A DNA stretch of 64,000 bases, taken from assembly GCA_902776455.1 (NCBI GenBank), contig CACYQI010000026.1:5686-69685 (forward strand), given 5' to 3'. This DNA is from an uncultured Bacteroidales bacterium. Lineage in GTDB: Bacteria > Bacteroidota > Bacteroidia > Bacteroidales > Bacteroidaceae. The notes beneath the pieces were generated by a model. That model was not told where the DNA came from. It saw only the letters and a program-made list of their open reading frames with translations, and did no database searches. Shown here piece after piece: positions 9,086-58,167 of the stretch. Numbering within the stretch: position 1 is the first letter of the stretch; each line of letters starts with the position of its first letter. The position numbers and the translations under genes were made by a program.

Positions 9086-9180
9086 TTTAACGTATAAAGT
9101 TGACTGACTTAACGTATAAAGTTGACTGACTTAACGTGTAGAGTTGACTGACTTAACGTGTAGAGTTGACTGACTTAACG
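9086..9180. repeat. tandem array of about 4 units of a 22-nt repeat (C family, cttaacgtRtaRagttgactga)
   Basis: Four near-identical 22-mers directly abut the A array. Confidence 0.9.
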
Positions 9181-9318
9181 TGTGAGTCCGCTTGAAAAAG
9201 TCCTGTAAGGACTAAAAGCTCTTAGCCCAGGGCATCGCCCTGGGTAGTAATCAAGCGGTTGTGTTTCGCTCTGTAAGAGCAAAAGCAGACATCTGAACTT
9301 TTCAAGTGGACTCACGTG
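9178..9318. repeat. 141-nt multi-stem element (S element): outer stem gtgagtccgcttgaaaaag/cttttcaagtggactcac enclosing three inner hairpins
   Basis: Inner hairpins are agtcc-tgtaa-ggact, cccagggc-atc-gccctggg and gctctta...taagagc. A second copy lies at 57854-57993. Confidence 0.75.
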
Positions 9319-10481: not shown

Positions 10482-10885
10482 TGCTGGAAACAAGTAATTA
10501 CCAACAACACAAAAGATATGAAACGGGAACTTTTACTTCTTCTCGTGGCTCTGCTGCCAATGGTAGCAAGTTCCTACGATGTCCAGATTGATGGCATCTA
10601 TTATGACTTCTCGGGAGACAATGCAACGGTGACTTATCAGAAATATCAAAATGATTATTATGTATCTGATTATTCTGGTGAAGTAGTTATTCCAGAATCT
10701 GTTACTTACGGTGGAAAGACTTACAGCGTGACCAGCATCGGCTACAGGGCCTTCTATGGTTGCAGCGGACTGACCTCCGTCACCATCCCCAACAGCGTGA
10801 CCAGCATCGGCGAGGAGGCCTTCCGAGGTTGCACCAGCCTGACATCCGTCACCATCCCGAACAGCGTGACAAGCATCGGCAACTA

Positions 10886-10984
10886 TGCCTTTGATTGTTG
10901 CACCAGCCTGACTTCCATCACCATCGGGAACAGCGTGACCAGCATCGGCTACAGAGCCTTCTCTGGTTGCACCAGCCTGACCTC
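10886..10984. repeat. 99-nt perfect direct repeat, copy 1 (LRR module)
   Basis: Reads identically to 11231-11329 by eye, offset 345 nt (five 23-aa LRR units). Confidence 0.85.
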
Positions 10985-11230
10985 CGTCACCATCCCAAAC
11001 AGCATGACAAGTATCGGAAGCCAAGCTTTCTATGGAACAGGATGGTATAAAGCCCAGCCAAACGGAATCCTCTATTTAGATAACTGGCTTATAGGTTATA
11101 AAGAAACTAAGCCGACAGGAAATGTAGCTATCAATAGTGGAACAAGAGGAATAGCAAACGCTGCCTTCAAAGATTGCAGCGGCCTGACCTCCGTCACCAT
11201 CCCCAACAGCGTGACCAGCATCGGCGAAAG

Positions 11231-11329
11231 TGCCTTTGATTGTTGCACCAGCCTGACTTCCATCACCATCGGGAACAGCGTGACCAGCATCGGCTACAGA
11301 GCCTTCTCTGGTTGCACCAGCCTGACCTC
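11231..11329. repeat. 99-nt perfect direct repeat, copy 2; the frameshift lies exactly at its 3' edge
   Basis: Same string as 10886-10984. The next base diverges (catcccg vs ccgtcacc). Confidence 0.85.
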
Positions 11330-13538
11330 ATCCCGAACAGCGTGACCAGCATCGGCAGCTGTGCCTTTCTAGATTGCAAAGGACTGACCTCCGTCACCAT
11401 TCCCAATAGCGTAACAAGCATCGGCGGCGGTGCCTTCTCTTATTGCACCAGCCTGACCTCCATGACTATCCCCAACAGCGTAACCAGCATTGGCGGGGAG
11501 GCCTTCCGAGGTTGCACCAGCCTGACCTCCGTCACCATCCCGAACAGCGTGACCAGCATCGGCAGCTGTGCCTTCCAAGGTTGCAGCAGCCTTACCTCCA
11601 TCACCATCCCGAACAGCGTGACAAGCATCCGTGACTTTGCCTTCTCATATTGCAGCAGCCTGACCTCTATCACCATCCCCAACAGCGTGACCAGCATCGG
11701 CAGTTGTGCCTTCTATGATTGCAGCGGTCTGACCTCCGTCACCATCCCCAACAGCGTGACAAGCATCGGCAACTATGCCTTCGATGGTTGCAGCAGCCTA
11801 AAAAAAACTATTTGGCTCACTAATACACCCCCTTCTGGTTACACTAATGTAAAGGGAACCATTAATTATGTATCAAACGAACAGTATTCTGGCCTCTCAA
11901 ACACAATTATCTATCCTTTCTTGAGTTCAATGTTCGAAGTTAATGGTGTTTGCTACGTACCTGTAAATCCCTCTGAACGTACTTGCGATCCCATTGATTG
12001 TAGGCATAATGAGACGGCTGCCCACCTGAATATTGCTTCTACTGTATCCTATAAAGGAATAACCATGCATGTAAACAAAGTGCAACCCTATTTCTGTTAT
12101 AAAAATCCATTTGTACAAACTTTGAATTGCGACTATGAAGGCGAAATATGCAATTATGCGTTTAGTGGTTGTACAAATTTATATAGTCTGACATTAGGCA
12201 AGAAAGTATCGTCGATTGGTGTTTGTTCCTTCCAAGGTTGTTCATCCTTGGCCTCTGTCACCATCCCAGATTCGGTTAGTACATTAGGAAACTATGCTTT
12301 CTCTGGCTGTTCTTCACTTGCCAGCGTTAGACTGGGAAATAACATCAAGTCATTAGGAAGTTATGTGTTCCAAAATTGTGGGATTCCTGCTATCAGCATT
12401 CCTGCATCCGTCAACTCCATCAATAATTATGCTTTTTCGGGATGTACGAAACTAAAAACTATTATCATTGCTAATCGCGATAACGAATTGTCGTTGGGCA
12501 GCAATGACAGTTCGCCCTTATTTTCAGACTGCCCTCTCGACTCTGTGTATATTGGCGGGAACATCAATTACAACACCTCTTCGAGCTATGGTTACTCCCC
12601 ATTCTACCGCAACACATCACTGCGCATGGTAGTTATTGCAGACAAAGAAACAGAGGTTTCTCCGAATGAGTTCTATGGTTGCACCAACTTGCAGAACTTC
12701 ACAATTGGCGATGGCGTCACATCATTCGGCAACTGGGCTTTCTCAGGTTGCACAAGCTTGAAGCGTCTTTCTTTCGGCTCTCATTTGGCTTCAATCGGTA
12801 AAGAGGCATTCTCAGATTGCTCATCTGTAATCGAGATAGTAAGTAAGGCGGTGACTCCTCCTTCTTGCGGAACACAGGCGCTGGATGACATCAACAAATG
12901 GGAATGTACGCTTACTGTCCCCAAAGGAAGTCTGGCTTCTTATCAGCAGGCAGAGCAATGGAAAGAATTCTTCTTTATCAATGAAGGCAATGGAGAAGAA
13001 CCGCCTGTCATCCCTGACCCCGAGAAGTGTGCAACGCCTACCATCAGCTATGTTAATGGCAAGTTGGTATTCGACAGCGAGACAGAGGATGTCGTTTTCC
13101 ATTCCTCGATTACTGATACTGACATCGCTTCGTATCTCAACAAAGAGATTTCCCTCTCCGCTACCTACACTATCACTGTCTATGCCACAAAGGCTGGCTA
13201 TGAGAACAGCAACGTAGCAACGGCCACCCTCTGTTGGATTGACGCAGAGCCGAGGTCGGAAGGTCTGGAAGAGGATGCTGTGACTGAAATAAAGGCTCTG
13301 CCCGTCCTCATTCAGGCACAAGCTGGCTTCATCAACGTTCAAGGCTTGGAGGCAGGCACAGAAGTCTCGGCCTACAACACCAGCGGCATGCTCTTAGACA
13401 CTATCGTCAGCGGTCAGGACACAGCAACGCTCCGCACCAAGATCCCCGCAGGTTCCACAGCTATCGTGAAGATAGGCCAGAGGGCTATAAAGGTCATGGT
13501 TAAGTGAATCCTTACACGTTAACTTACAAAACATCGCT

Positions 13539-28708: not shown

Positions 28709-29021
28709 AGGAAAAAGGAAAAGGGCGCACTGGTGATGTGATGAAACTCCGAAAAACAGGTTTTGAGGGTTCGCCGCCTTTGTAATCCACCTAACCATAA
28801 ATGGGATGGCACGCCATTGGACAGACGAAACAGTTCTCGGTAATAAAATGTAAATTGATGAGTATCCCGATCTAACCAGTACGCCCTATTTGTGTATGTC
28901 TTGCCAGCTGCAAGGCCATTTAGGTCTTCAATTGTATTGCAAAAATAGTAAGTCTTGTTGTAATATGCAAGTTTTTTAGGCTTTTTCTTCGTCTTCCTTT
29001 GGCATTTTGTTGAAAACTTCC

Positions 29022-29058: not shown

Positions 29059-31614
29059 ATGACGCTACATTTCTCCATTGAATACCGAACGGAATGGGGA
29101 CAGTCCGTTGAGGTCGAACTTAGCTTCCTTTCTGCCGACGGAAAGACAACCCGACAGTACATTCTCCTCGAAACAGACGACGGGGTCTTCTGGAAAGGTG
29201 TCTTCAGGCTCAAGTCGCGCAGCAGCCAGTTCCGATACACGTATATTATAACCGCTTCCCACCAGTCGCAATCCCGCTCCACTGCTGCCGAAGGAGAGGA
29301 TGCCAGAGGTGTGATTGAGGGGGGAAGGGCTGTGCTGCGCCGCGAATGGGACGTCGTGCCGCGCCTTTTCCCTGTTGACGACAACCGGACATACTTCTTC
29401 CTGGACCATTGGCGCGACAGGCCGGCTTCTTCCTATTGCTATACCGATGCCTTCCGCATCAGTTCGGGAATAGCGAAAAACTCAGCCGTCATGCCTGCCC
29501 TCTTTCCCCGTACGTGCCTCTTCCGCATTCAGGCTCCGCAACTTCAGCCTGGAGAGAGGGTTGCACTCCTTGGCGACCAGCCCGCCCTGGGCAACTGGGA
29601 CGTGGCGCGAGCCTTGCCCATGATGCCGTCCAGCAATGGCGAGTGGCTTCTTTCCATCAGCGGCGACGGCTTGCGTCTGCCGTTCCAATATAAATATATA
29701 AAGGTAGGGAAGGACCATTCGGTGCTTTGGGAAGAAGGTCCCAACAGGCAAAGTCCGGAACACTCCCCCAAAGGGGTGGAAGGAGGAGGCTGCGTCGTCG
29801 CCCTTTCCGACGGCGAGTTGCGGCTTCCATCGCCTCGCTGGAAGGTGGCAGGCCTCGTGGTGCCTCTCTTCTCGCTGCGTTCCGAAGGAAGCCAAGGGGT
29901 AGGGGATTTCGGCGACCTCTGCCAGATTTGCGACTGGGCAGCCTCTACAGGCATGCATGCCGTACAGCTCTTGCCCATCTACGACACTACCCAGAACCGC
30001 ACCCCAACGGACAGCTATCCCTACAACGCCATTAGCGTCCACGCCCTCCATCCCATCTATGCCGACCTGCGCCGCCTGCCTCTTGCCGATGCCGAAGCAC
30101 TCGCTTCCTTCCGCGAAAGATGGCAGAAACTCAACGCGCTGCCTGCCATCGACTACGTCGAAGTCATCAAGATGAAGGAAGAATACCTGCACCTCCTCTA
30201 TGAAGAGCAGACAGCCTCTTCCCAACCCTCTCCCGTGGGAGAGGAAAGCCTCTCCCCAGACCTCTCCAAAGGGGAGGGAGTTTCGTCGCCTTGGCTGCTG
30301 CCCTATCAGGTCTTCTGCCACTTGCGCGACACCTACGGCACAGCCCGTTTCGCCCAGTGGCCCAAGCTCTCGGCCTACAACCAGAGTGCCGTGCGGAGGT
30401 ATGCCGAGCGTCATGCTCACGAAATCGGCTATTATGCCTTCGTGCAGAACATCCTTCATCAGCAACTTTCCGAAGCGGCCGAACATGCCCGCCGCCTGCG
30501 CGTCTTCCTCAAGGGCGACTTGCCCATCGGCATCAGTCCCAATAGCGTAGAGGCTTGGCAGTCGCCACACCTCTTCCACACTGACATGGCAGCCGGAGCA
30601 CCGCCCGACGACTTCTCGGCCACAGGGCAGAACTGGGGCTTCCCTACCTACGACTGGGAACGCATGGCTGCCGACGGCTACCAATGGTGGAAGCAGAGGC
30701 TCAGGGACATGTCGAAGTACTTCGGAGCCTACCGCATCGACCATATCCTCGGCTTCTTCCGCATCTGGCAGATACCTCGGAACAGCCCCACAGCCCTCCT
30801 CGGACAGTTCTCGCCCGCTCTGCCCATGAGCGTCGCAGAGATAGAGTCCTACGGAATGCCCCTCGTGCCGGAGCTTTTCGTGCCCGATGCCACCCGTCCC
30901 GACCTCTACCACCCGCGTATCGGAGTGATAGGCGAGAAGGCCTGGTGCAGTCTCCCCAAGTACGAACAGGACGCCTTCATCCGTCTCTACGAAGACTTCT
31001 TCTTCCGCAGGCACAACAACTTCTGGGCAGAGCAGGCCATGCATCGGTTGCCCGTCCTCGTCGATGCTACCGACATGCTCGTCTGCGGCGAAGACCTCGG
31101 AATGGTGCCCGACTGCGTAGGCCCCGTCATGCAGCACCTCGGCATCCTCAGCCTCGAGATACAAGCCATGCCCAAGGCCTACGGCGTGCGCTTCTCCCGC
31201 CTTTCGGACAACCCTTATCGAAGCGTAGCCACCATCTTCACCCACGACATGCCAACCCTCCGCCTCTGGTGGAAGGAAGATGCCGAGCGCACCAGACTCT
31301 ACTATAATGAAGTGTTGGAGCACGACGGCCCTGCGCCCGACGACCTTCCGGGATGGCTGCAAGAAGAAATCGTGGCACACCACCTCAACTGTCCCTCCAT
31401 GCTCTGCCTCATCAGCCTGCAGGACTGGATATCGATGGACGAGAGCCTGCGCAACCCGCATCCCGAAGAGGAGCGCATCAACGTGCCAGCCAATCCCAAG
31501 CACTACTGGCGCTACCGCATGCACATCCCCATATCGCGCCTCCTCGCCGCCGATGCCCTGAACGACCGCCTGCGCACCCTCATCGCCCGCTCCGGCAGGG
31601 AGTGCCTTCTCTAA
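29059..31614 (+). CDS. malQ: 4-alpha-glucanotransferase (GH77) with an N-terminal starch-binding-type module
   Basis: 851 aa with GH77 blocks VQLLPIYDT, YRIDHILGFFRIW and GEDLGMVP. Confidence 0.85.
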   Translation: MTLHFSIEYRTEWGQSVEVELSFLSADGKTTRQYILLETDDGVFWKGVFRLKSRSSQFRYTYIITASHQSQSRSTAAEGEDARGVIEGGRAVLRREWDVVPRLFPVDDNRTYFFLDHWRDRPASSYCYTDAFRISSGIAKNSAVMPALFPRTCLFRIQAPQLQPGERVALLGDQPALGNWDVARALPMMPSSNGEWLLSISGDGLRLPFQYKYIKVGKDHSVLWEEGPNRQSPEHSPKGVEGGGCVVALSDGELRLPSPRWKVAGLVVPLFSLRSEGSQGVGDFGDLCQICDWAASTGMHAVQLLPIYDTTQNRTPTDSYPYNAISVHALHPIYADLRRLPLADAEALASFRERWQKLNALPAIDYVEVIKMKEEYLHLLYEEQTASSQPSPVGEESLSPDLSKGEGVSSPWLLPYQVFCHLRDTYGTARFAQWPKLSAYNQSAVRRYAERHAHEIGYYAFVQNILHQQLSEAAEHARRLRVFLKGDLPIGISPNSVEAWQSPHLFHTDMAAGAPPDDFSATGQNWGFPTYDWERMAADGYQWWKQRLRDMSKYFGAYRIDHILGFFRIWQIPRNSPTALLGQFSPALPMSVAEIESYGMPLVPELFVPDATRPDLYHPRIGVIGEKAWCSLPKYEQDAFIRLYEDFFFRRHNNFWAEQAMHRLPVLVDATDMLVCGEDLGMVPDCVGPVMQHLGILSLEIQAMPKAYGVRFSRLSDNPYRSVATIFTHDMPTLRLWWKEDAERTRLYYNEVLEHDGPAPDDLPGWLQEEIVAHHLNCPSMLCLISLQDWISMDESLRNPHPEEERINVPANPKHYWRYRMHIPISRLLAADALNDRLRTLIARSGRECLL
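30215..30280. repeat. in-frame GC-rich palindrome element (B family) inside malQ
   Basis: cccaaccctctcccgtgggagagg (palindrome at 30226-30244) plus cctctccaaaggggagg. Translated as SSQPSPVGEESLSPDLSKGEG. It shares the cccaacc flank with the copy at 3729. Confidence 0.8.
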
Positions 31615-31631
31615 ATCCAGACCCCCTCTAA

Positions 31632-31674
31632 CTCCCCCATAAGGGGGAGGACTCCCTCTCCCACGGGAGAGGGT
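31632..31674. repeat. two GC-rich palindromes just after the malQ stop (ctccccc-ataa-gggggag; ccctctcccacgggagaggg)
   Basis: Arms checked by reverse complement. Confidence 0.9.
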
Positions 31675-31744
31675 TTGGGAGAGGCTGCGGGGGGAAGTGT
31701 CGCTGTCGTTCCTCGTCGGCGACCTCTTTGCGGAGTGTTGATTT

Positions 31745-31825
31745 ACACTCCACGTTGCATCGGCTTACACTCCACGTTGCATCGGCTCACGCTCCACGTT
31801 GCATCGGCCGATGCTCCACGTTGTG
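31745..31825. repeat. A-family 22-nt units, reverse orientation (about 3.5 copies of acactccacgttgcatcggctt)
   Basis: Tandem units lying between malQ and mltG. Confidence 0.85.
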
Positions 31826-32886: not shown

Positions 32887-32949
32887 CATAATTTCGCCCG
32901 AAAAACAAAAATTTTCAACTTTCAACTTTCAACATTCAACTTTTTTTTG

Positions 32950-37843: not shown

Positions 37844-38056
37844 AAAGTCCCGAAGGGACGAGAGACCACAGACGGGGGCGCAAGCCCCCGGTAGTAGTGC
37901 GACAATCAAAGAAGCCCCGACGGGGCGACAGAGACCTAATCATGTTGTTATTAAACACGTTACATGTTCTGTCGCCCTTTCAGGGCTTAGTTTTGTTAAT
38001 TCGCTTGTACCGGGGGTTACACCCCCGTCTGTGGTCTATCGCGCCTCCGGTGCTTA
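37844..38056. repeat. 213-nt mirror-symmetric element made of six local hairpins around a central stem
   Basis: Hairpins at 37847-59, 37873-90 (GCAA loop), 37914-26 | 37974-86, 38011-27, 38041-53. Shared arms are agaccacagacggggg and cccccgtctgtggtct. Confidence 0.8.
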
Positions 38057-48822: not shown

Positions 48823-50028
48823 TTATTTAGTTTCTATTGCTTTCTGTTTGTTGACGACTGGGTTGGCGTACATCGTGAGAATGCGTTCCCTGAGGAAGTC
48901 TTCGTCCTTGTTCGCTATCTGCACGAGGTCTATGCGGCTCTGCAGGTAGGTTTCGAAGGTCTTCTTCTCCTCTTCGCTGTACTTGTCGGCAAAGGCTGAC
49001 GTGCCGCTGAGCAGGTCGGCTGCTACGTAGTTGCCCGGGAAGAGCTGATAGCCGGCATGAATCTGCTGGTCGATGCGGCGGGCCACCTCTGCAAAGACTT
49101 CCGTCTTAGGCAGTTCCGATAGTTCGTCGAGCCAGGTGTTGATGCAGGGACGGGCTTCGTAGTGGATGCGTCCTTTCTGTCCGAAGATGCCTGTCTTCAT
49201 GTTGTCCAGATCGTCCTGCTTGCTCTTCTTGAACGATGGGTTGTCGCGCTTCAGCTGGAACTCCTGGGCTTTGAGGTAGTCGCAGGGGTCGTACTCGTAG
49301 CTGATGCTGAGCGGCACGATGTGGAGATCCTTGAGGCGTTCCACGATGCTCCCTTCTCCGGCCATCGCAAACATCTTAAGCAGAGAGTCTTGCGTCTGGT
49401 CGCTGCTGTCCTTGGCTCTGCCTTCGCGTTGTGCTATCCAGATGTTTTCGTGCTTCTCGTTGATGGCGTGGTGCATGTAGCGGCTCATGGTCTGACTGCT
49501 TTCGAGGAGTTCCCTCGGACTGAGTCCCCTTTTGACCGTGAAGGCTTTGTTGAGTTTGACGAGCGTCTTAATCCAGGGGTAGATGAGCAGGTTGTCGCCG
49601 ATGGCTATCTCGCAGGTCGTGGGGAAGCCGTTTTCGAGCAGCAGGAGGTCGAGAATGGCGCTGTCGAGCACGATGTCACGATGGTTGCTGATGAAGGTGT
49701 AGCGTACCGGTCCGGGGGCAATACCGCTGTAGGAGAGGCTGTACCCTGTGCTGCATTTCTTTAGGATGCGCTTCAGTACGGGCTTGATGAAACGCAGTTG
49801 GAACTGCAGGGGCGTGTTGACACCAACAAATGCCAAACGTATCAAGCCGTTACGCATCCATTTCGGCATCCAGGGCACGAAGCCCCTGAGCAGATGCGAG
49901 AACTGTCTGTCGGCAAGCAAGCTCTCAACGGCCTGCTTCACTTCGCCCGCCGCGTAGGGACGGATTTCGTCGAAAGACCCCCCATCCCCCTTTAGGGGGA
50001 GGCATTCATTACATTTGGATTCTGACAT
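48823..50028 (-). CDS. PlsC-type glycerolipid acyltransferase
   Basis: NHRDIVLD (Hx4D) motif. The first 18 codons (MSESKCNECLPLKGDGGS) are encoded by a palindromic repeat. Confidence 0.75.
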   Translation of the reverse strand: MSESKCNECLPLKGDGGSFDEIRPYAAGEVKQAVESLLADRQFSHLLRGFVPWMPKWMRNGLIRLAFVGVNTPLQFQLRFIKPVLKRILKKCSTGYSLSYSGIAPGPVRYTFISNHRDIVLDSAILDLLLLENGFPTTCEIAIGDNLLIYPWIKTLVKLNKAFTVKRGLSPRELLESSQTMSRYMHHAINEKHENIWIAQREGRAKDSSDQTQDSLLKMFAMAGEGSIVERLKDLHIVPLSISYEYDPCDYLKAQEFQLKRDNPSFKKSKQDDLDNMKTGIFGQKGRIHYEARPCINTWLDELSELPKTEVFAEVARRIDQQIHAGYQLFPGNYVAADLLSGTSAFADKYSEEEKKTFETYLQSRIDLVQIANKDEDFLRERILTMYANPVVNKQKAIETK

Positions 50029-50083
50029 AATGCTACGAATGTTTTACATTATAAGTTCCCCCTAAAGGGGGGGGTAGGGGGTC
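49976..50083. repeat. 108-nt palindromic element spanning the ddl stop and the acyltransferase start
   Basis: Arms gaccccccatccccctttagggggagg and ttccccctaaaggggggggtagggggtc, each itself a hairpin. ATG 50028 and stop 50062 both lie inside the element. Confidence 0.85.
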
Positions 50084-52305: not shown

Positions 52306-52330
52306 ACTCTTACTTTATTCAACTTTCAGC

Positions 52331-52433
52331 CTCTCCTCATCCCTCCCCTAAAAGGAAGGAGGTAAGTCTCTCCATCCCTCCCCTAAAGTGAAGGGGGTAA
52401 GTCTCTCCCTTTAGGGGGAGATATAGAGGAGGC
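52331..52433. repeat. cluster of three degenerate GC-rich palindromes (tccctcccctaaa...ggagg; ctctccctttagggggag)
   Basis: B-family words between the PASTA gene and rluD. Confidence 0.7.
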
Positions 52434-52515
52434 TTTCAATTTTCAACTTTCAATTTTCAATTCCCTCCCCTTTCAATTTTCAACTTTCAATTTTCAACTT
52501 TCAATTTTCAACTTT
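52434..52515. repeat. octamer tandem array (tttcaatt/ttcaactt, G family) abutting the PASTA-gene stop codon
   Basis: About 9 units in two blocks separated by ccctcccc. Confidence 0.85.
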
Positions 52516-53390: not shown

Positions 53391-53516
53391 ACACTTGCGA
53401 AGTTCGCGTGCTAAGTTTGCAAACTTAACGTGCCAAGTTTGCAAACTTAACGTGCCAACTTTGCTAAGTTAACGTGCTAAGTTTGCGAAGTTGACGTGCG
53501 AAGTTTGAATCTTCAC
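53391..53516. repeat. tandem array of about 5.7 units of a 22-nt repeat (K family, aagtttgcaaacttaacgtgcc)
   Basis: Units at 53391, 53413, 53435, 53457 and 53479. Each contains the 14-nt palindrome aagtttgcaaactt or a variant. Confidence 0.9.
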
Positions 53517-54890: not shown

Positions 54891-56741
54891 TCACTTAACC
54901 ATGACCTTGACAGCCCTCTCGCCAATCTTCACGATAGCTGTGGAGCCTGCGGGGAGCTTGGAGCGAAGCGTGGCTGTGTCCTGACCGCTGACGATAGTGT
55001 CCAGGAGCATACCACTGGTGTTGTAGGCCGACACCTCTGTGCCTGCATCCAAGCCGCTGACGGTAATGGTGCCAGCTTGCGACTGAATGAGGACAGGCAG
55101 AGCCTTTACTTCGTTCACGGCATCTTCGGCAATGATGCCATTGGTGACTGGCTGGCGGTCAATCCAGCAGAGGGTGGCAGTTGCCACTTCGCTGTTGTCG
55201 CAGCCTGCCTTTGTGGCATAGACGCTGATGACGTAGGTGGCGGAGAGGGAAACCTCGTTGCCGTAGTGCGTCTTGACGTCGGCATCGGTGATAGTGGCCA
55301 CGCACTCGGCTCCCTCGGTTGTGCTGGTGAAGGTCAGCTTGCCGCCAGCATAGCTGATGGTGGGCGTAGCGCATATCTCGGGCGTTGGCGGTTCGGGCGT
55401 GCTTCCGTCTGTGGCTTTCTTCGTTCCGAACAGGCTCCAAGGCTCTTTTGCCTTGTAAAGCTCTATAGATGCCGCCGGTACATGAAGCGTGGCATACTCG
55501 ATGTATGAGTTTTCAAAAGCATTACTTTCAGTAGAGGGAACATCTTCGGCATAGCAATAGACGTCTGTCAGCTCCGGGCATTTGGCAAAGGCATAGTAGC
55601 CGATGCTTTTCGTTCCGCTGCCGATGGTGACGGAGGTCAGGCTTCTGCAATACTCGAAGGCATAGTTGCCGATGCTGGTTACGCTGTTGGGGATGGTGAC
55701 AGAGGTTAGGCTGCTGCAATTCTTGAAGGCATAGTTGCCGATGCTTGTCACGCTGTTTGGGATGGTGACGGAGGTCAGGCCACTGCAACCATAGAAGGCA
55801 CTTTGGTCGATGCTTGTCACGCTATTCGGGATGGTGACGGAGGTCAGGCCGCTGCAACCAGAGAAGGCTTGGGAGCCGATGCTGGTCACGCTGTTGCCAA
55901 TGGTGACGGAGGTCAGGCTGCTACAATCTCTGAAGGCATAGTCGCTGATGCTGGTCACGCTGTTCGGGATGGTGACGGAGGTCAGGCCGCGGCAACCATC
56001 GAAGGCCCAGTTGCTGATGCTGGTCACGCTGTTGGGGATAACAAGGTCTTTTATTTCCTCGCCATTCATATATAAATGATGAGCATATGAAAGAGGATTG
56101 GAACCACCAAAAGCGATATTGCACCATGCTGCTACATCTGTTATATGGACGGAGGTCAGGCCGCTGCAATTCAGGAAGGCATAGCTGCCGATGCTGGTCA
56201 CGCTGTTGGGGATGGTGACAGAGGTCAGGCCGCTGCAACCATAGAAGGCTCTGTCGCCGATGCTGGTCACGCTGTTTGGTATGGTGATGGAGGTCAAGCC
56301 GCTGCAATCTTCGAAGGCATAGTCGCCGATGCTGGTCACGCTGTTGGGGATGGTGATGGAGGTCAGGCTGGTGCAGTAATAGAAGGCCTTTTCGCCGATG
56401 CTGGTCACGCTGTTGGGGATAGTGACGGAGGTCAGGCCGCTGCAATTATCGAAGGCAGATTCGCCAATGCTGGTCACGCTGTTGGGAATGGTGATGGAGG
56501 TCAGGCCACTGCAACCATAGAAGGCACGGTAGCCGATGCTGGTCACGCTGAATTCCTTACCGTCGTAGGTAAAGGAAGCAGGGATGTTGACTTCGCCAGA
56601 GTAGTATCCACTTGGCTTTTTTGTTACTTCGGCTTGTCTTGCCTTGACTATCAGATTGTACCAGATGCCGTCGATTTCTACAGATGCGTTTGCCACTATT
56701 GACAGCAGGGCCACAAGAAGAAGTAAAAGTTCCCGTCTCAT
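54891..56741 (-). CDS. BspA-like leucine-rich-repeat surface protein with T9SS C-terminal domain (intact paralogue of 10518-13507)
   Basis: Start [19 protein letters not shown] at 56741, IPNSVTSIG 23-aa LRRs. The C-terminal 170 aa are colinear with the 13507 gene (…[24 protein letters not shown]…KVMVK). Confidence 0.8.
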
Positions 56742-56786: not shown

Positions 56787-56887
56787 CAAAGAATTTCAAT
56801 ACCTTCAAAGTATTGTGTGATTTTTTTTGTCTGAAAACCCCTCACAGCCTCCCCAAAGTGTTTCCGTGTGGCATACCCCACCCCTAA

Positions 56888-56910
56888 CCCCTCCCCTGCG
56901 AGGGGAGGGG
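56888..56910. repeat. GC-rich palindrome cccctcccc-N5-ggggagggg (mirror of 8756-8778)
   Basis: The flank ccccacccctaac is the reverse complement of the flank at 8779-8791. Confidence 0.9.
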
Positions 56911-57108
56911 AAGAGAGGCTGAAACCATATCAGCGAGAGCTTTCTCCATGTACTCCATGTGCTCCGTAGAAATAAAAACTCTAAGGAGCCAAGGAGTCAA
57001 AGGAGGGAAGCGGGGCCTTCTCCATGTACTCCATATACTCCGTAGATAAAAAGGCCCCCAGCCTCCACATTGGGAGGAGGAACGCTCAGTTGCAGCTAAG
57101 AGGCTCTA

Positions 57109-58032: not shown

Positions 58033-58042
58033 ACTCGCTAAA

Positions 58043-58167
58043 ACACTCCACGGAGTATCGGCTAACACTCCACGGAGTATCGGCTAACACTCCACGGAGT
58101 ATCGGCTTACGCTCCACGGAGTATCAGCTTACACTCCACGGAGTATCGGCCTACGCTCCACGTTGTG
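58043..58167. repeat. A-family 22-nt tandem array (about 5.5 units, acactccacggagtatcggcta), mirror
   Basis: Head-to-tail 22-mers in reverse orientation relative to 8880-9085. Confidence 0.9.

Follow-up and report, generated by a model that had tools for sequence, protein, structure and literature searches.

How does a palindromic repeat that elsewhere lies between genes come to be translated within an enzyme? The question is raised by nucleotides (nt) 30215-30280 of a stretch of 64,000 nt, here called the window, from contig CACYQI010000026.1 (assembly GCA_902776455.1) of an uncultured Bacteroidales bacterium of the Bacteroidaceae. A first-pass annotation of this DNA had placed a GC-rich palindrome and a second, degenerate hairpin in frame within malQ, the gene for a GH77 4-alpha-glucanotransferase, and had reported copies of the same element between genes. 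Our analysis bears out these observations and corrects their interpretation in one main respect: the repeat sits in a recombinationally active cassette where it replaced existing sequence, and is not a simple insertion. We think it probable that 30215-30280 is a translated, two-unit copy of a dispersed nested-hairpin family that turns over by copy-and-paste through its arms, the resulting peptide being a tolerated passenger.

The host gene itself is sound. malQ (29059-31614, plus strand) is an intact open reading frame (ORF) of 851 amino acids (aa) in the ORF list, to which Pfam assigns Glyco_hydro_77 (3e-136) and CBM_20, and it is the only plausible gene at 30215-30280. A database protein (P0123) matches the 851-aa window MalQ exactly and occurs on 9 contigs from NCBI and ENA assemblies; the allele is therefore real and not a one-off assembly artefact. 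The nearest proteins are MalQ of "Bacteroidaceae bacterium" metagenome-assembled genomes (MAGs) whose sample and isolate names refer to roe-deer omasum, sheep rumen and rumen co-assemblies, and judging by these names they are of ruminant-gut origin. A 680-aa ORF antisense to malQ (29482-31524, minus strand) is open through the repeat; in our view it is no gene but a side effect of GC-rich codon usage.

The segment (30215-30280, cttcccaaCCCTCTCCCGTGGGAGAGGaaagCCTCTCCCCagaCCTCTCCaaaGGGGAGGgag) contains the perfect palindrome CCTCTCCCGTGGGAGAGG at 30227-30244, 392 codons into the 851-codon frame, and the degenerate hairpin CCTCTCC-aaa-GGGGAGG at 30261-30277, with one G-T wobble. Residues 387-407 (nt 30217-30279) read SSQPSPVGEESLSPDLSKGEG, the peptide given by the first-pass annotation. 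The repeating unit is larger than the palindrome, and the segment consists of two such nested-hairpin units in tandem. Unit 1 (30214-30244, plus strand) is GCCTCTTCCC-aa-CCCTCTCCC-gt-GGGAGAGG, in the order outer C-arm, inner C-arm, loop and G-arm; unit 2 (30248-30277, plus strand), GCCTCTCCCC-aga-CCTCTCC-aaa-GGGGAGG, ends in the degenerate hairpin. A third, overlapping palindrome (30237-30256, plus strand; GGGAGAGG-aaag-CCTCTCCC, in full GGGAGAGGaaagCCTCTCCC) spans the two units, the G-arm of the first being able to pair with the outer C-arm of the second, and this pairing is present in the predicted minimum-free-energy structures. The hairpin lies in the most stable of all 60-nt stretches along the malQ mRNA (-28.9 kcal/mol, where the gene averages -13.8 +/- 4.9), although its stability is not beyond what composition gives when compared with dinucleotide-preserving shuffles (z = -0.61 as RNA and 0.03 as DNA). 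The case therefore rests on sequence identity to other copies and not on folding energy. At gathering thresholds, Rfam places no family over the malQ element.

That identity is found within the window itself. The 18-mer CCTCTCCCNNGGGAGAGG has five perfect matches (3731, 4176, 8822, 30227 and 31655) against 0.01 expected from shuffles, so that the malQ copy is identical in 18/18 positions to four others with which it also has flanks in common. A relaxed three-block motif (first loop of 2-6 nt; 1/1/2 substitutions) has seven matches, the malQ copy among them, against 0.02 in shuffles. Altogether the 64 kb hold about 15 units, and the malQ copy is the sole one that is not intergenic. With copies oriented by their loop (GT versus AC), a unit comprises an outer C-arm (GCCTCACCCC or GCCTCTCCCC), 2-4 nt, the inner C-arm CCCTCTCCC, a 2-nt loop and the G-arm GGGAGAGGG, to which some copies add an outer G-arm (GGGGTGAGG or GGGGAGAGGC). 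The intergenic unit at 3716-3750 (plus strand; GCCTCACCCCCAACCCCTCTCCCatGGGAGAGGGG), directly after the stop of an ETF-alpha gene, is gcctcacccccaacc followed by the hairpin and has the same cccaacc 5' flank as the malQ copy, as had been claimed. The two copies said to follow the malQ stop are likewise there: a composite at 31618-31687, 4 nt past the stop, joins a unit GACCCCCTCTAACTCCCCCataaGGGGGAGG (31620-31650, plus strand) to an inverted one (31654-31687, minus strand), with hairpins at 31632-31649 and 31654-31673 and termini CAGACC...GGAGAGGCTG. These post-stop copies were considered as the malQ terminator, a role that is unsupported: a scan after the malQ stop gave no terminator-like feature, in agreement with the published negatives for PIT, a repeat discussed below.

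Comparison with orthologues, which the first-pass annotation had proposed as a check, indicates how the repeat is accommodated. Most MalQ orthologues have a conserved 20-aa segment, QxxxxCQxxxYRxFxxxNAE, between the invariant ...YLHxxYEE and WLxPY; the canonical example P0015 reads QGQDVCQSANYRAFADENAE, its DNA (P0015/L007) has no hairpin repeat, and in an alignment with Thermus amylomaltase 2x1i the segment falls on the EDFARFQEEEAWWL region. In the AlphaFold model of P0015 the segment is covered by helices (the end of 343-367, then 369-377 and the start of 379-395) at pLDDT ~95. The window protein instead has a variable cassette at residues 384-411 (QTASSQPSPVGEESLSPDLSKGEGVSSP; 30208-30291, plus strand), delimited by protein and DNA alignments with orthologues and by AlphaFold, in which residues 389-408 are modeled as coil at pLDDT<50 between helices 366-387 and 413-426. 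Apart from the repeat segment the modeled fold is kept, and the rest of the enzyme is intact in sequence, including its catalytic motifs, with D561, E678 and D730 in invariant columns of the alignment. From alignment and models, then, 28 repeat-derived residues have replaced an ordered 20-aa helix, with no landing in a loop, and are predicted to form a disordered loop rich in Pro, Ser, Gly and Glu. An equivalent segment lacking palindromic DNA in homologues had been named as grounds for rejecting the element; that criterion proved ambiguous, in that the orthologous segment exists and lacks the palindrome but is unrelated in sequence, so that the window allele is derived and the original proposal is supported.

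The window is not alone in this. At least 17 of the 81 orthologue representatives (P0001, 4, 7, 9, 12, 13, 14, 17, 18, 19, 21, 25, 26, 27, 34, 42 and 52) have a longer, non-canonical segment at the same site, and the seven DNAs that were fetched (L001, L006 and L129-L133) all contain nested CT-arm/GA-arm hairpins, with minimum free energies of -26 to -85 kcal/mol. The hairpin-type variants are scattered among canonical ones on a neighbor-joining tree, and since a replaced canonical helix cannot be regained, this distribution suggests several events.

Some further alleles at this site (P0005/P0010/P0011 and P0138) look, at the protein level, like translated 7-nt tandem repeats: FNVQCSMFN back-translates to TTCAATG x4, and MLNGQWSMFNGQ looks similar. 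Four more sites vary among MalQ orthologues (after query residues 73, 216, 234-244 and 610), with inserts that read like translated CT/GA hairpins (HPSPSGEKEGG, KTPQSPLGGETA and SLPIEGEVW). In the window MalQ, residues 70-86 (STAAEGEDARGVIEG) form a second stretch with pLDDT<50, whose DNA has no clear repeat unit (residues 74-88 correspond to 29278-29322).

Close relatives demonstrate how quickly the cassette changes. Over malQ and the DNA flanking it, the window and a sister strain (L001) agree in ~99% of nucleotides, yet their segments, of 28 and 51 aa, cannot be aligned between a common left junction, cagacagcctcttc, and the WL codons; the composite after the stop also has an additional 43-nt unit in L001. 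A second species repeats the pattern, with two strains (L134 and L006) 98-100% identical outside the segment and different cassettes between the common arms ACAGCCTCTCC...GGTGAGGCT. In L134 the CCCTCTCCC hairpin forms an inverted doublet around a 19-nt spacer, read as PSPVGEG...PLSHGRG. In 90% clusters, protein lengths are 851, 870, 871 and 874 in one species and 825, 839, 840, 847 and 858 in the other. The malQ site is thus a strain-level hypervariable cassette at ~1% genome divergence. Among all the DNA collected, window unit 1 is closest to the copy that directly follows malQ in L001 (31/32), with L119 also at 31/32.

In-frame copies are not confined to malQ. At least 12 further hosts were validated with Pfam: UxaC (L021, a doublet), IleRS (L112, with two further hairpins), a GatA-like amidase (L019), a Cys/Met pyridoxal-phosphate (PLP) enzyme (L059), a transglutaminase-like protein (L031/L126), a ThiD-like/AraC fusion (L087, a doublet in the linker between the domains), the CCA-adding enzyme or PolyA_pol (L142, L158), TruA (L156/L167/L170), ArgRS (L176), HerA (L160), a ZIP transporter (L140), Ham1 (L159) and the DnaB intein of a cyanobacterium (L015). 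In a polysaccharide deacetylase (L099) the motif (aa 75) lies upstream of the start of the Pfam domain (aa 87). For the most part the hosts are Bacteroidota MAGs or rumen-like contigs: apart from the cyanobacterium with the DnaB intein, those taken from genomes are MAGs named as Bacteroidota, and the contigs of metagenome origin, with GC of 0.39-0.56, are untyped. Alignment of the PLP enzyme with PDB 3e6g leaves a gap of 12 residues precisely where SLSPSPAGEGRG lies. Of 52 perfect CT/GA hairpins in ~288 kb of Bacteroidales DNA, 27 lie deep inside long ORFs, a crude census that gives an upper bound because the loci were partly selected for such copies.

All three frames through the hairpin are free of stops. 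The frame reading PSPxGEG was used in 13/17 independent events (binomial P = 3e-4), a tally over loci partly chosen for the motif that takes in L099 and an RHS-like locus (L044) judged by eye. The bias is consistent with selection that prefers a small, flexible and hydrophilic peptide to PLPWERG or LSRGRG. An absolute use of this frame was dropped, the initial 11/13 having been weakened to 13/17 by an independent metagenome sample.

Two of these hosts gave observations of their own. Two rumen MAGs have copies of the transglutaminase-like gene (L031 3257-5776 and L126 4768-7302) with a nucleotide identity of 82%, but with a 93-nt island of 100% identity centered on the in-frame repeat, which suggests either recent exchange of a patch or strong constraint. 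The ThiD-like kinase (Phos_pyr_kin) is fused to an AraC-type helix-turn-helix domain in one gene call in related MAGs (L087 1254-2417, minus strand; L131 12465-12880).

To which family does the repeat belong? Repeats of closely similar build were already described in the 1990s and have no assigned function. The TMECO pattern, CCCTCNCCC-N3-6-GGGNGAGGG-N3-GGGNGAGGG with at most one mismatch, has 3610 occurrences in 262 proteobacterial genomes, is abundant in cyanobacteria too, and has been equated with the earlier BoxC and PIT (Holder et al. 2015, PMC4666352). HPG1/HPG2, GGGAGAGGG-TTA/CCG-GGGTGAGGG, have a C-rich 5' flank (Kaplan et al. 2016, PMC5100583). The strict TMECO expression has 0 matches in the window, because of a first loop of 2 nt and a degenerate third block that ends ...GGC; under the relaxed motif the malQ copy reads TCCTCTCCC-ac-GGGAGAGGG-tt-GGGAAGAGGC on the minus strand. 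Given seven relaxed matches against 0.02, we treat the window repeats as a relaxed member or Bacteroidota variant of BoxC/PIT/TMECO/HPG, an assignment made from sequence. Common to all are the blocks CCCTCTCCC, a loop, GGGAGAGGG, a short loop and GGGGTGAGG/GGGGAGAGG; multiple dispersed copies, often in inverted pairs and similar to one another (five perfect 18-mers here); loci hypervariable between close strains, as between the window and L001 or L134 and L006; no known function or mobilizing enzyme; and potential hairpin, triplex or G-quadruplex alternatives. Motif-bearing loci are unusually variable between E. coli strains, and the single-stranded motif forms triplexes or G-quadruplexes in vitro, without in vivo evidence (PMC4666352, PMC5100583). 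In composition, the minus strand of the malQ copy has three G3 tracts and a GG, and the copies at 8756 and 56876 have four G4 tracts. A further difference is one of location: in E. coli MG1655 the motif is "always located intergenically" (PMC4666352), whereas here it lies in frame in conserved Bacteroidota genes. Neither Bacteroidota nor coding copies are mentioned in PMC4666352 (0 occurrences of "bacteroid") or PMC5100583, and none were found in a literature search. There is no repeat annotation at the fabI copy of E. coli K-12, and none under the blastn matches in other strains.

Taxonomic breadth does not add to this assignment. In a scan of one genome per species (596 Gb), the matches listed for the 18-mer fall in many phyla, but our own estimate from the degeneracy of the pattern is ~35-100 chance matches in that amount of DNA. 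With tens of matches due to chance, breadth is no evidence and common flanks are; most copies among the matches listed have N3-5 plus GGGGTGAGGG on one side, or the complement on the other.

A longer identity crosses phyla as well. The exact 32-mer CCTCACCCCCAACCCCTCTCCCRYGGGAGAGG occurs ~28 times in one cyanobacterial assembly (JAESGS... contigs, L135-L180 set, GC ~0.46), where it sits in a longer repeated MITE-like element with ends ATCCGGTT...AACCGGAT, and also in L029, L052, L103, L111 and L120 (Cyanosarcina radialis). It is found too in rumen-like contigs of GC 0.50-0.56, of which L136 and L154 are orthologous to the window locus at 3716. This cross-phylum identity is far beyond chance.

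In its behavior the repeat has a parallel in the Rickettsia palindromic elements (RPE). As outlined in a review, these elements are ~150 bp long, restricted to Rickettsia and encode a conserved peptide, and they occupy intergenic DNA and also, in frame, unrelated housekeeping genes, to whose products they add a peptide compatible with the fold (Ogata et al. 2000, reviewed in PMC10969869). Here, too, palindromic repeats are intergenic and in frame in unrelated genes (MalQ and the Pfam-validated hosts above), with the fold preserved in the MalQ model; unlike the RPE, the units are ~30-35 nt, GC-rich, modular and present in several phyla, and in MalQ a helix was replaced and not a loop extended. 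We draw this as an analogy of behavior; length and host phylum differ, and membership is not claimed. MITEs and intragenic ERIC and RU with ORFs (Delihas 2007, PMC2759123; reviewed in PMC10969869) resemble our repeats as small non-coding repeats that occasionally make in-frame fusions, and the composites here have terminal inverted repeats; they differ in that our units are much shorter than typical MITEs, with no target-site duplication visible at malQ, and in that intragenic occurrence is much commoner in this clade.

How might such a repeat reach a conserved gene and then change so readily? In the account we prefer, the repeat would first have colonized the malQ site, after which the short homology of its arms could allow template switching or gene conversion with copies elsewhere in the genome. 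This copy-and-paste would be driven by replication or repair, in line with the local instability reported for the family in E. coli. Selection would then retain only in-frame, stop-free variants at structurally permissive places and would favor the PSPxGEG frame as a small, flexible, hydrophilic peptide. The repeat peptide itself is most likely a tolerated passenger with no catalytic role.

Several points weigh against this account or soften it. Both the spread mechanism and the passenger status of the peptide are inferred; a dedicated mobilizing enzyme may exist, the coverage of this genome being the 64-kb window; and the strict TMECO mismatch already noted loosens the tie to the family. The scatter of malQ variants could reflect one old colonization followed by divergence, or exchange between species, and on a shallow tree (70-75% identity) the number of independent events is uncertain. 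No donor was found for the window allele, an exact search with its 31-mer junction giving 0 matches in metagenome contigs, and neither a target-site duplication nor a clean empty site is visible at malQ, there being no empty site for comparison because the canonical sequence was replaced. The L099 motif is not established to lie within the true coding region, and L044 was judged by eye among loci partly picked for the motif, which tempers the frame bias.

The strongest competitor, which we regard as possible though clearly less likely, holds that these are non-autonomous elements of REP/REPIN or MITE type, moved in trans by a Y1/HUH RAYT-like or IS transposase, the malQ copies marking transposition into a preferred target. 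REP/REPIN, which depend on RAYT/TnpA_REP, are likewise short GC-rich multi-copy palindromes with inverted doublets around a spacer and composite mosaics (PMC3116915, PMC2817692, PMC3733652, PMC6006769), and REPIN-like inverted doublets with variable spacers occur in L134 malQ, L021 UxaC, L087 and L142. The terminal inverted repeats CAGCCTCTCC...GGAGAGGCTG on composites, the 32-mer common to rumen-like contigs and the cyanobacterial MITE-like element (ATCCGGTT...AACCGGAT), and the existence in Bacteroidetes of their own TnpA_REP subclass, flanked by "atypical secondary structures" (PMC6006769), point the same way. However, a clean insertion with target-site duplication was tried for malQ and rejected, the canonical sequence having been replaced. 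REPs are extragenic by definition, and their conserved GTAG/CGTC head is missing here: GTAG adjoins the 3716 copy only, the other copies that were read having ACAG, CCAG, GAAG or GGCC. In E. coli the family has no association with transposons, phages or plasmids (Holder et al., PMC4666352). A tblastn search of ~1.3 Mb of collected loci with an IS200 TnpA query gave no match, a weak test that would miss RAYTs, and the 64 kb of this genome showed no candidate enzyme.

A selected function is improbable in comparison. The segment could act as an mRNA hairpin, affecting ribosome pausing or stability, or as an adaptive variable surface loop of MalQ, for instance an antigenic or phage-related one, and one may cite for this that no local structure in the malQ mRNA is more stable, that many lineages keep the segment, always in frame, and that in the transglutaminase-like gene a copy of the repeat lies at the center of the 93-nt identical island. 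Yet that stability does not exceed composition-matched shuffles, most orthologues have no such segment at all, and the alleles are unrelated in sequence and length, down to plain 7-nt tandem repeats. MalQ, which we assume to be cytoplasmic, has no obvious reason for surface diversification, and PIT/TMECO have neither promoter nor terminator activity in E. coli (PMC4666352).

Bacteroidales are rich in invertons. An intragenic inverton, in which a site-specific recombinase flips DNA between in-gene inverted repeats and so recodes the protein, recalls the two inverted ~33-nt units around a 19-27-nt spacer in L134 malQ and L021 UxaC; we hold it very unlikely, as the window palindromes enclose 2-4 nt, whose inversion changes nothing useful, the alleles differ by replacement and length and not by the orientation of a common spacer, and no recombinase family is among the Pfam matches of the ten window ORFs scanned. 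Least credible of all is a chance low-complexity stretch, a palindrome-like ancestral linker or an assembly artefact: CT- and GA-rich composition alone does fold strongly, as the z near 0 indicates, but the 18/18 identity to four other copies with common flanks, a chance expectation of 0.01-0.02, the lack of the segment in most orthologues and the identical protein on 9 independent contigs speak against it.

Further intergenic copies lie elsewhere in the window. A unit at 4175-4207 (minus strand) ends 5 nt upstream of the ATG of an acyl-CoA dehydrogenase gene. A cluster at 8756-8880 combines a CCCCTCCCC-type unit (8756-8791, minus strand; G strand GGGGAGGGGTTAGGGGTGGGG) with a composite at 8805-8880 (termini ACAGCCTCTCC...GGAGGCTGT) and runs into a 22-nt tandem array. 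Two units lie within 49976-50083, between an acyltransferase gene and ddl (49976-50002, plus strand, and 50058-50083, minus strand); a composite of three hairpin units spans 52327-52434 (plus strand; termini CAGCCTCTCC...AGAGGAGGCT); and another, CAGCCTCCCC...GAGAGGCTG, with the unit CCCCACCCCTAACCCCTCCCCtgcgaGGGGAGGGG, spans 56845-56921 (plus strand). Arms of CCCCTCCCC or CTCCCCC mark sub-variants at 8756, 31620, 49976, 50058, 52327 and 56876, several of them inside composites with terminal inverted repeats CAGCCTCTCC...GGAGAGGCTG. The neighboring ORFs scanned with Pfam are genuine genes, namely those for ETF-alpha, the acyl-CoA dehydrogenase, DUF3472, MltG/YceG, the acyltransferase, Ddl, an RluD-like protein, a PASTA-domain protein and a BspA-type leucine-rich-repeat (LRR) protein.

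Other repeats and RNAs share the window. Tandem arrays of 22 nt lie at 8880-9082, 9087-9187, 31743-31823, 53407-53507 and 58042-58162 (for example TGGAGCGTGAGCCGATGCTACA x9); two directly adjoin hairpin composites (8805-8880 and 31618-31687), and the array after malQ has one extra copy in the sister strain L001, so hairpin composite and array may be one larger composite element. Arrays of 7 nt are scattered through it (2188-2277, 5670-5699, 32913-32943 and 52434-52515), also inside the ORF 4212-5972, and long repeats with a 69-nt period lie inside ORFs at 10723-11799 and 55588-56550, the second in the BspA-type LRR protein (Pfam LRR_5). Elsewhere in the window Rfam finds two tRNAs, a Bacteroidales-1 RNA (a proposed 6S-like RNA; 28717-28886, minus strand, 130 bits) between a SLOG/LDcluster4-like gene and malQ, ~170 nt upstream of the malQ start, and a borderline, possibly spurious Acido-Lenti-1 match (37846-37891, minus strand; 38 bits against a gathering score of 37).

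What is new here is a Bacteroidota variant of a known family translated in frame; the family itself and RPE-like behavior were known already. Repeats described as strictly intergenic in E. coli lie in frame in enzymes that include tRNA synthetases. In Bacteroidota and cyanobacteria translation relies little on Shine-Dalgarno pairing, and we speculate that GGAGG-rich arms inside genes may for this reason cost them less than they cost E. coli. More tentatively still, BoxC/TMECO-type hairpins could be an active copy-and-paste element that crosses phyla, hosted in frame in essential genes by lineages with little Shine-Dalgarno use and a general source of strain-level length polymorphism and of disordered enzyme loops; its driver might be an enzyme acting on single-stranded DNA or hairpin-primed template switching. 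That a 32-mer is conserved exactly between phyla is itself open to test. For annotation and protein clustering the finding is a warning that orthologues of different length may differ by repeat cassettes alone, and the malQ cassette is a possible strain marker. An ordered helix has been overwritten by a disordered loop while the reading frame and catalytic motifs stay, and alleles turn over within ~1% divergence: the site is a natural experiment in how proteins tolerate insertions.

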